Origin: a virus | IMG/VR virus record: IMGVR_UViG_3300010391_001881 | DNA: 15,702 bases | Reading direction: 5' to 3' (one strand) | Shown: one piece after another, positions 9,309 to 9,396 of the stretch | Position numbering within the stretch: the stretch's first letter is position 1 | How the letters are laid out: each line of letters begins with the position of its first letter | Notes under the pieces: model-generated | Seen by the model: the letters and a program-made list of their open reading frames with translations, nothing else | Told to the model about the DNA's origin: nothing | Databases searched by the model: none | Position numbers and translations under genes: made by a program

Positions 9309-9396
9309 CGGACCCGGGAGGATTCGAACCCCCATTAACCTGATCGGCCTTCCGCTTTGGAGGCGGCTGCTCTTGTCCAGTTAGAGCTACGGGTCC
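9309..9396 (-). tRNA. Type II (long variable arm) tRNA with anticodon CCA (Trp by anticodon). The body resembles Ser/Leu-class tRNAs and the loop is one substitution from Ser(CGA)
   Basis: Acceptor GGACCCG/CGGGTCC is perfect, discriminator G, D arm GCTC-TAACTGGACAA-GAGC, anticodon stem (G)CCGC/GCGG(A), loop CTCCAAA, 17-nt variable arm, T arm GGGGG-TTCGAAT-CCTCC. Confidence 0.7.

Follow-up and report, generated by a model that had tools for sequence, protein, structure and literature searches.

A phage tRNA with a CCA anticodon and a variable-loop hairpin, a putative remoulded tRNA-Trp

A 15,702-bp metagenomic contig of viral origin (IMG/VR record IMGVR_UViG_3300010391_001881; G+C content 38%; hereafter the window) carries at 9309..9396, on the minus strand, an 88-nucleotide (nt) tRNA gene that combines the anticodon CCA with an additional hairpin in the variable region. 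Judged from its sequence and from its relatives, this locus is probably a functional, hairpin-bearing, remoulded phage tRNA-Trp that decodes UGG as tryptophan, a reading that we hold with moderate confidence. Its scaffold would be that of a class I type tRNA, with a 7/5 acceptor/T branch, a 4-bp D stem and the 46-48 segment kept, into whose variable loop a 13-nt hairpin has been set. Phage and metagenomic contigs fetched for comparison are labelled L001–L202.

Several results confirmed that the locus is a genuine tRNA gene with a CCA anticodon. ARAGORN called a tRNA-Trp(cca) at 9308-9397 of the minus strand, and the Rfam tRNA model RF00005 matched 9309-9396 with 47.3 bits, above its gathering score of 29 (E=1.4e-7). 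The Rfam alignment set CUCCAAA as the anticodon loop and placed a 14-nt insertion in the variable region. RNAfold, left unaided, produced a cloverleaf with an additional, fifth hairpin (-35.8 kcal/mol, z=-2.0). A 1831-bp Logan contig (L007) from an independent assembly was identical to the window over its full length, including the hairpin tRNA. The gene, which has no encoded CCA end, starts with a 7-bp acceptor stem (GGACCCG/CGGGUCC) followed by U8 and A9. The top of this stem consists of G1-C72, G2-C71 and A3-U70 (9394-9396 paired with 9310-9312), next to the discriminator G73 at 9309. The D stem GCUC/GAGC has four Watson-Crick pairs and is followed by A26, and the T arm GGGGG-UUCGAAU-CCUCC has a 5-bp stem. 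The anticodon arm GCCGC-CUCCAAA-GCGGA spans 9351..9367, with CCA at positions 34-36 (9358..9360) inside the loop at 9356-9362, which reads TTTGGAG on the plus strand. All the universal tertiary positions are intact (U8, G18G19, U33, A37, UUCGAAU and G53-C61). Read directly and compared with its counterpart in L153 (CAACUGGUA), the 11-nt D loop UAACUGGACAA (9373..9383, minus) is a canonical AACUGG..A loop with one added 5′ pyrimidine and two added nt past G18G19. Both Rfam and ARAGORN flagged a mismatch between G27 (9367) and A43 (9351) at the top of the anticodon stem, in which four Watson-Crick pairs remain. A preliminary description of this sequence had pointed to the 11-nt D loop, the 17-nt variable region and the CUCCAAA loop with CCA, and had called the tRNA non-canonical; all of this was borne out by ARAGORN, the Rfam alignment and direct reading, and neither program offered the alternative fold with a different anticodon that the description had named as its refutation. 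The G27·A43 mismatch and the homologues with other anticodons reported below go beyond that description.

The 17-nt variable region AGGCCGAUCAGGUUAAU (9334..9350, minus) folds, according to RNAfold, ARAGORN and folding of the variable region, into one 5′ nt, a 13-nt hairpin GGCC-GAUCA-GGUU with a 4-bp stem (9337..9349) and an unpaired AAU. The two outer pairs of the stem are G·U, giving a geometry of 1 nt, 4 bp and 3 unpaired nt. We folded the variable regions of every long tRNA in the fetched phage loci, including 36 distinct tRNA-Ser. The median stem of the tRNA-Ser was 5 bp, and 32 of the 36 had at most one unpaired nt 3′ of the variable (V) stem. A 3-nt 3′ spacer was typical of long tRNAs with an anticodon other than those of Ser, Leu or Tyr (6/12) and of some tRNA-Tyr. 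Because inserting a hairpin into a class I loop that retains positions 46-48 leaves a 3-nt segment, we favour the view that the window arm is such an insertion and not a Ser/Leu/Tyr architecture. The preliminary description had assumed the latter, a premise weakened by the four Watson-Crick D pairs, by the 4-bp V stem with two G·U pairs and 3 nt after it, and by the finding that tRNAs bearing Ala, Asn and His identity marks have this hairpin too.

These tRNAs were found among relatives of the window. The thymidylate-synthase-like protein led to L152 and L153 and the macro-domain protein to L197, L198, L201 and L202; these loci carry tRNA arrays like that of the window, including a CUA suppressor. 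An ordinary 74-76-nt tRNA-Trp(CCA) with A1-U72, G2-C71 and G73 occurs once each in L152, L153 and L202. The body of the window tRNA is nearer to hairpin-bearing tRNA-Asn genes than to these class I tRNA-Trp: of the 106 distinct tRNAs compared from related loci, the most similar was an 87-nt L153 tRNA with anticodon GUU (Asn; 4788-4874; U1-A72, G73, hairpin GCC-GAAA-GGC), at an identity of 0.77 (background: median 0.57, 95th percentile 0.66). The two tRNAs share the YAACUGG D loop, the GCCGC/GCGGA stem with G27·A43, the hairpin, the T loop and acceptor pairs 3-7, and they differ at the three anticodon bases and by compensated swaps at the acceptor top (U1-A72 and C2-G71 in L153, G1-C72 and G2-C71 in the window). 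Next nearest was a GUU (Asn) tRNA of L184 (5607-5693; U1-A72, G73, hairpin GGCC-GAAA-GGUU then CAC), whose identity of 0.73 is inflated by selection since L184 was retrieved with a pattern that fixes the 3′ strand of the window anticodon stem; L153 was found via its protein and is free of this bias. The hairpin was also present in a UGC (Ala) tRNA with the alanine identity marks G3:U70 and A73 (L197 6124-6210; GGCC-GAAA-GGUU then UAC) and in a GUG (His) tRNA (L001/L003; AGCC-GAAA-GGUU then CAU). Hairpin carriers retain identity marks that match their anticodons. Taken as 7/5 tRNAs of phage tRNA arrays with a V hairpin RGCC-GNNNA/GAAA-GGYU followed by 2-4 unpaired nt, the group comprises the tRNAs of the window, L153, L184, L197 and L001/L003. 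Their V stem varies in sequence, with pairing kept in five of six sequences (G·U, A-U, G-C), and the outer pair of L153 is G·A. We excluded a truncated tRNA with A73 that opens L197 (GGCC-GAGA-GGUC), as it may be an ordinary tRNA-Leu. Phage tRNAs for Trp, Asn, Ala and His with this hairpin form a small and apparently undescribed group.

Exact and gapped pattern scans for long-arm CCA tRNAs gave no match in IMG/VR or GTDB genomes, and the 24 matches in JGI metagenomes included no tRNA. The match of a second genome scan was a non-tRNA Collinsella sequence and gave no clue to the host. BLAST of the window and L184 hairpin tRNAs against GenBank phages returned class I tRNAs only, with a gap at the hairpin. 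An initial reading as a class I tRNA-Trp with a 12-nt insertion, based on the likeness of the anticodon and T arms to class I tRNA-Trp of IMG/VR, was dropped as isotype evidence because the anticodon arm GAGCAGCCGCCUNNNAAGCGGAAGG is generic in Thr, Met, Lys, Arg and Asn tRNAs. In the literature searched, whose coverage is incomplete, neither a phage long-arm tRNA-Trp nor a conserved V hairpin on class I type phage tRNAs was described, and an earlier description is possible.

The position of the gene in the tRNA array is consistent with a role as tRNA-Trp. The window has 19 tRNA genes, all on the minus strand (ARAGORN, Rfam), interspersed with small open reading frames (ORFs) and lying downstream of phage-type genes. 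The hairpin tRNA is the first of the array and its sole CCA tRNA according to ARAGORN, and no second CCA tRNA was found in the window or in ~2.5 kb of further array on the overlapping Logan contig L201. The claim of the preliminary description that the array lacks an ordinary type-I tRNA-Trp thus held over both stretches. A landmark for the missing gene is an RNase P-like RNA of 211 nt embedded in the array (8598-8808, minus). In L153 an ordinary class I tRNA-Trp (5806-5880) directly follows this RNA, and in L152 the class I tRNA-Trp lies ~570 nt past it. In the window, the RNase P-like RNA (8808..8598) abuts a tRNA-Ile(gat) (8597..8523), so that the junction at 8597..8598 (minus) has no class I Trp gene at the slot seen in L153, and the hairpin CCA tRNA heads the array instead. 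The empty slot together with a CCA hairpin tRNA at the array head supports a functional replacement by alloacceptor remoulding of a hairpin Asn-type gene.

The most likely origin, in a direction that we infer, would be a hairpin-bearing tRNA-Asn-like gene. Remoulding would have changed all three anticodon bases (GUU to CCA) and, with compensation, the top two acceptor pairs (U1-A72 and C2-G71 to G1-C72 and G2-C71). The product would have taken the tRNA-Trp role that a class I gene holds in the relatives and that is vacant in the window array.

The RNase P-like RNA was detected in a permissive Rfam scan with the model of bacterial RNase P RNA class A. The match spans the whole model, and its 79.1 bits (E=4e-24) fall short of the gathering score of 100 because the specificity domain is largely missing. 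It retains the conserved GAGGAAAcUCCGG and ACAGAAuCCGGGUUACAG elements and is kept in L153 (5597-5804) and L152 (11709-11908), with compensatory changes at 10 of 55 predicted pairs. By these sequence features it looks like a phage-encoded RNase P RNA reduced to the catalytic domain, and no phage RNase P RNA of this catalytic-only kind was described in the literature searched.

Bacterial tryptophanyl-tRNA synthetase (TrpRS) relies mainly on C34, C35, A36 and G73, to which G2-C71 and the neighbouring pairs add in B. subtilis and the 1-72 pair makes a minor contribution (PMC9976931). The window tRNA has the complete major set, C34, C35, A36 and G73, and among the minor elements it has G2-C71, its 1-72 pair being G-C and not A-U. 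Identity for asparaginyl-tRNA synthetase also rests on the anticodon and G73. A change of the anticodon alone could shift an Asn-type scaffold to tryptophan. Charging by the host TrpRS would then proceed via C34, C35, A36 and G73, supported by G2-C71, and the tRNA would be used on the ribosome. The other CCA tRNAs of the loaded phage loci (~10 distinct, 17 entries) are all class I with G73. They have the 4-5-nt variable loop of class I tRNA-Trp, in place of the 17 nt with a hairpin seen here. The codon usage of the phage itself is also informative. When 16 TGG codons from the thymidylate-synthase-like, macro and vault-like genes of the window were aligned to homologues, 15 fell on Trp-dominated columns, several of them invariant, one on a mostly gapped column and none on a Ser column.

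A long variable arm with G73 and a GGA/UCC top could also be read by seryl-tRNA synthetase (SerRS), and the tRNA would then insert serine at UGG, either wholly or in competition with TrpRS (dual identity). SerRS ignores the anticodon and reads the long-arm shape, G73 and the acceptor stem, and C2-G71 acts against it (PMC9976931). This antideterminant is found in the L153 homologue and is gone from the window tRNA, which has G2-C71. The two extra D-loop nt past G18G19 are a class II trait, 4-bp V stems occur in some phage tRNA-Ser, and the allo-tRNAs and nev-tRNAs compared below are precedents for class II tRNAs with other anticodons. In E. coli the serine identity set reportedly consists of G73, G1-C72, G2-C71, A3-U70 and C11-G24, partly after Normanly et al. 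1992, and the window tRNA has all of them. Because of this match we do not dismiss serylation, and yet we consider it unlikely. In tRNA-Ser the arm has single nt on either side of a stem of some 5 bp or longer, a geometry that the window arm does not share: its 3-nt 3′ spacer and two basal G·U pairs are unlike 32/36 phage tRNA-Ser. Changes of this sort matter, as engineered tRNAs were serylated less well or not at all when the V stem had a G:U pair or a bulge at its base, and engineered long-V-arm tRNAs with Ala, Tyr or His identity were still active (PMC7590224). The D arm differs as well, with four Watson-Crick pairs and a distinct loop instead of the 3-pair stem, unpaired 13:22 and GCC-GAGNGG... 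loop of tRNA-Ser. Moreover, the same hairpin stands in tRNAs of Ala type (A73, G3:U70) and His type, which cannot all serve SerRS, and G1-C72 is also found in a class I phage tRNA-Trp (L195). Finally, serine at UGG would hit the invariant Trp positions of the phage's own TGG codons, with the hairpin tRNA as the sole UGG decoder supplied once the class I gene is absent from the L153-type slot. The preliminary description had offered serine insertion or, failing that, an unusual Trp tRNA; the second branch is favoured, and the first conflicts with TGG on conserved Trp columns in spite of the matching serine set.

The remaining long-armed isotypes were compared in the same way. tRNA-Leu and tRNA-Tyr are marked by A73, with GUA for Tyr, as opposed to G73 and CCA here, and G73 blocks the leucyl- and tyrosyl-tRNA synthetases in E. 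coli (PMC9976931). The 8/5 branch, 6-bp D stem and UCA anticodon of tRNA-Sec are absent, and the best match in the clan was the plain tRNA model. An 8-bp acceptor, Sec-like reading, which arose from a U(-1)·G73 pair in the ARAGORN output, was rejected, as the Sec model gave no match. Nor is a U at -1 peculiar to this gene: it stands in front of other tRNAs in these arrays too, the hairpin homologues and the relatives' class I tRNA-Trp among them.

A few observations weigh against a hairpin-bearing tRNA-Trp. Its 1-72 pair is G-C, unlike the A-U of the closest relatives' class I tRNA-Trp. Taken with the long arm, G1-C72, G2-C71, A3-U70, C11-G24 and G73 amount to the E. coli serine set, and phage tRNA-Ser of related loci likewise start with GGA and end with UCC-G. 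A second tRNA-Trp may be encoded elsewhere in the phage genome, beyond the window and the L201 array. L184 carries a class I GUU tRNA beside its hairpin GUU tRNA, which suggests that the hairpin form is not a mere substitute. The group, finally, comprises five distinct hairpin tRNAs whose stem changes are one-sided, so that covariation is weak.

The same L184 pair bears on whether the gene translates at all. It could be a duplicate in decay, or it could serve in the shape of a tRNA as a decoy or regulator, such as bait for a host tRNA-targeting enzyme; the anticodon would then be free to drift. That three anticodon bases changed while the scaffold was conserved looks like relaxed decoding constraint, many allo-tRNAs seem inactive in translation (PMC5389517), and the Rfam score of 47.3 bits is among the three lowest of the window array. 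We think such a fate improbable: no universal tertiary position is lost, each acceptor swap is compensated, the hairpin stem is maintained across the group, and the array would otherwise be without the Trp decoder present in its relatives.

It is very improbable that the hairpin is excised after transcription, as a tiny intron or processed insert, to leave an ordinary class I tRNA-Trp. Removing ~12 nt would restore a 5-nt variable loop, and an insert is found in another tRNA, at L184 7885-7987. There is, nevertheless, no bulge-helix-bulge motif, the class II style extra D-loop nt suggest that the arm is present in the mature fold, and we know of no bacterial mechanism for cutting a 12-nt segment from a variable loop. 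The L184 element is in itself a 103-nt Rfam tRNA match (53.2 bits), missed by ARAGORN, with 30 nt inserted inside the anticodon loop, and it may represent an intron-like insert in a phage tRNA.

The G27·A43 mismatch leaves a 4-bp anticodon stem, and a tRNA-Trp with such a stem might promote readthrough of UGA; combined with the CUA suppressor, two stops would be damped. A tRNA-Trp(CCA) whose stem has 4 bp raised UGA readthrough in E. coli ~2.5-fold in a 2026 study, which also mentions a natural G27-A43 mismatch of a tRNA-Thr (PMC13092985), and the CUA tRNA is kept in the window, L152, L197, L198 and L202. Still, the GCCGC/GCGGA stem is generic, being shared by the homologues with GUU and by class I tRNAs of many phages (Thr, Met, Lys, Arg), and TGA is the commonest stop of the window (13 of 25 ORFs; TAG, 3 of 25), with well-conserved genes free of in-frame TGA. 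We regard a UGA-reading function as rather implausible, and readthrough is possible as a side effect only.

The CUA-anticodon tRNA, an amber suppressor labelled 'Pyl' by ARAGORN, lies at 6206-6278 (minus) of the window and at the same array position in relatives (L152 15239-15311, L197 3112-3189, L198 3406-3482, L202 12333-12407); L202 also has a 113-amino-acid (aa) RF-1-domain gene at 4021-4362. Recoding of TAG or TGA inside the window was considered and found unsupported, as the conserved genes are intact under code 11 with TGA as the main stop. The conserved window genes showed no in-frame TAG; recoding, if there is any, would therefore affect genes beyond the window. At 13534-15666 (minus), DHH phosphoesterase-like, isochorismatase and thymidylate-synthase-like genes follow one another in one reading frame; between them lie only a TGA with 3 codons and a TAG with 9 codons. 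If the CUA tRNA reads through this TAG, the isochorismatase and thymidylate-synthase-like genes would be fused into a 521-codon frame, and coincidence is possible.

If the window tRNA is a hairpin-bearing tRNA-Trp, the hairpin most likely alters how tRNA-binding factors of the host or the phage see the tRNA, with decoding unchanged. More speculatively, and with a chance that we put well below even, it could be a portable, sequence-conserved tag that an uncultivated, probably large phage lineage grafts onto class I tRNAs (Trp, Asn, Ala, His), marking phage tRNAs for a dedicated partner or shielding them from host tRNA-targeting defence. A phage factor or the S-domain-less RNase P-like RNA of the same arrays are possible partners. 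Tagged scaffolds could then hop identities by anticodon replacement (Asn to Trp), since the charging enzymes recognise their tRNAs by the anticodon and position 73.

The window tRNA can be set beside several known systems. With class I tRNA-Trp(CCA) it shares the CUCCAAA loop, G73, G2-C71, the 7/5 branch, the canonical T loop and the place of sole UGG decoder of its array, and it differs in the 17-nt hairpin variable region (in place of 4-5 nt), the 11-nt D loop and G1-C72 instead of A1-U72. As in alloacceptor remoulding, a duplicated gene would have shifted its anticodon and taken the role of another isoacceptor whose original gene was lost. Classic remoulding involves one anticodon change, in organelles or bacteria; here three anticodon bases and two acceptor pairs differ, on a scaffold with an extra arm. 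The UGA-linked tRNA-Trp with 4-bp stems have the same CCA anticodon and unpaired top of the anticodon stem (G27·A43 here), but they are class I, whereas the window stem is common to non-Trp homologues in a contig whose commonest stop is TGA. Allo-tRNAs (Mukai et al. 2017, PMC5389517) are also bacterial or phage-associated; their V arm is long, position 73 is mostly G or U, and different anticodons sit on a conserved scaffold. Unlike the window tRNA, with its 7/5 branch, 4-bp D stem, 11-nt loop, short arm and 3-nt spacer, they branch 8/4 or 9/3, their long D stem is capped by a tetraloop, and their arm is of the Ser type (PMC5389517). The nev- and nov-tRNAs (Hamashima et al., PMC3333845, PMC4300185) likewise combine a class II shape with class I amino-acid anticodons; they are eukaryotic, derived from tRNA-Leu and leucylated in vitro, whereas the window tRNA is viral, has G73 and looks class I derived. 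Closest in design are engineered tRNAs tagged with an aptamer in the V arm, a small hairpin that leaves Ala, Tyr and His identity and translation intact and whose stem-base geometry decides acceptance by SerRS; these are synthetic, on a 9/3 allo-tRNA chassis, as against a natural 7/5 tRNA here (PMC7590224).

Other long tRNAs of these arrays deserve mention. With 37 bits, the window tRNA-Tyr(GUA) (8962-9051, minus) scores lowest in the array under Rfam; its 3-bp V stem is followed by 7 unpaired nt, and its D loop of 11 nt, UAAUUGGUGAA, is similar to the one in the CCA tRNA. A small V hairpin with 3 unpaired nt after it was seen in further long tRNAs with class I anticodons, namely L176 1502-1591 (Lys UUU, 90 nt), L186 7117-7198 (Gly UCC, 82 nt) and L152 2459-2541 (Thr UGU, 83 nt), and insertion of hairpins into variable loops may be widespread in phage tRNA arrays. 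Two GUU-anticodon phage tRNAs (L178 1362-1447 and L176 10668-10759) stand on a Ser-looking body, with the D arm GGCCGAGAGGUAAGGCGC, a Ser-type V arm, a single 3′ spacer nt, G73 and an encoded CCA, yet with U1-A72 as in tRNA-Asn. They are possibly a separate, perhaps more provocative class II tRNA with an Asn anticodon.

The phage-type genes of the window encode thymidylate-synthase-like, isochorismatase, DHH phosphoesterase, macro-domain and endonuclease VII/HNH-like proteins and an 847-aa protein with a vault 'shoulder' domain. The last (10792-13335, minus) matches the shoulder domain of major vault protein (E=4.5e-23) and a vault repeat, with a weak SPFH/Band 7 match. Homologues with 78% identity occur in L153 and in three IMG/VR contigs (L004-L006), which have no flanking genes in common with the window and at most one tRNA in their 10-kb flanks (ARAGORN). 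The endonuclease-like neighbour has no relatives in IMG/VR. Between its ORF (9813-10382) and the first tRNA lies a terminator-like hairpin with a T run (9622-9655, minus). Because this hairpin precedes the first tRNA, the array may be a separate transcription unit; a simple promoter scan found no promoter-like site between the two. Adjoining the hairpin tRNA is a tRNA-Ile with a genomically encoded UAU anticodon (9223-9294, minus), kept in L152 and L153, and ATA is frequent in window genes (83 of 320 Ile codons).

Long variable arms are a textbook feature of tRNA-Ser, tRNA-Leu, tRNA-Sec and bacterial tRNA-Tyr only. The known exceptions, allo-tRNAs and nematode nev-tRNAs, derive from tRNA-Ser or tRNA-Leu and raise the question of deliberate mistranslation. 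The window tRNA points to another route, in which class I tRNAs gain a conserved small hairpin and keep their identity, with an apparent switch of amino-acid identity on one scaffold included. The miniature RNase P-like RNA of the same array may matter more than the hairpin tRNA. If our reading is true, these arrays would hold a natural class II shaped series for Trp, Asn, Ala and His and natural hairpin-tagged scaffolds for orthogonal tRNA engineering, annotation pipelines would be warned against taking such genes as recoding signals, and tRNA remoulding would be shown to take place within phage arrays.

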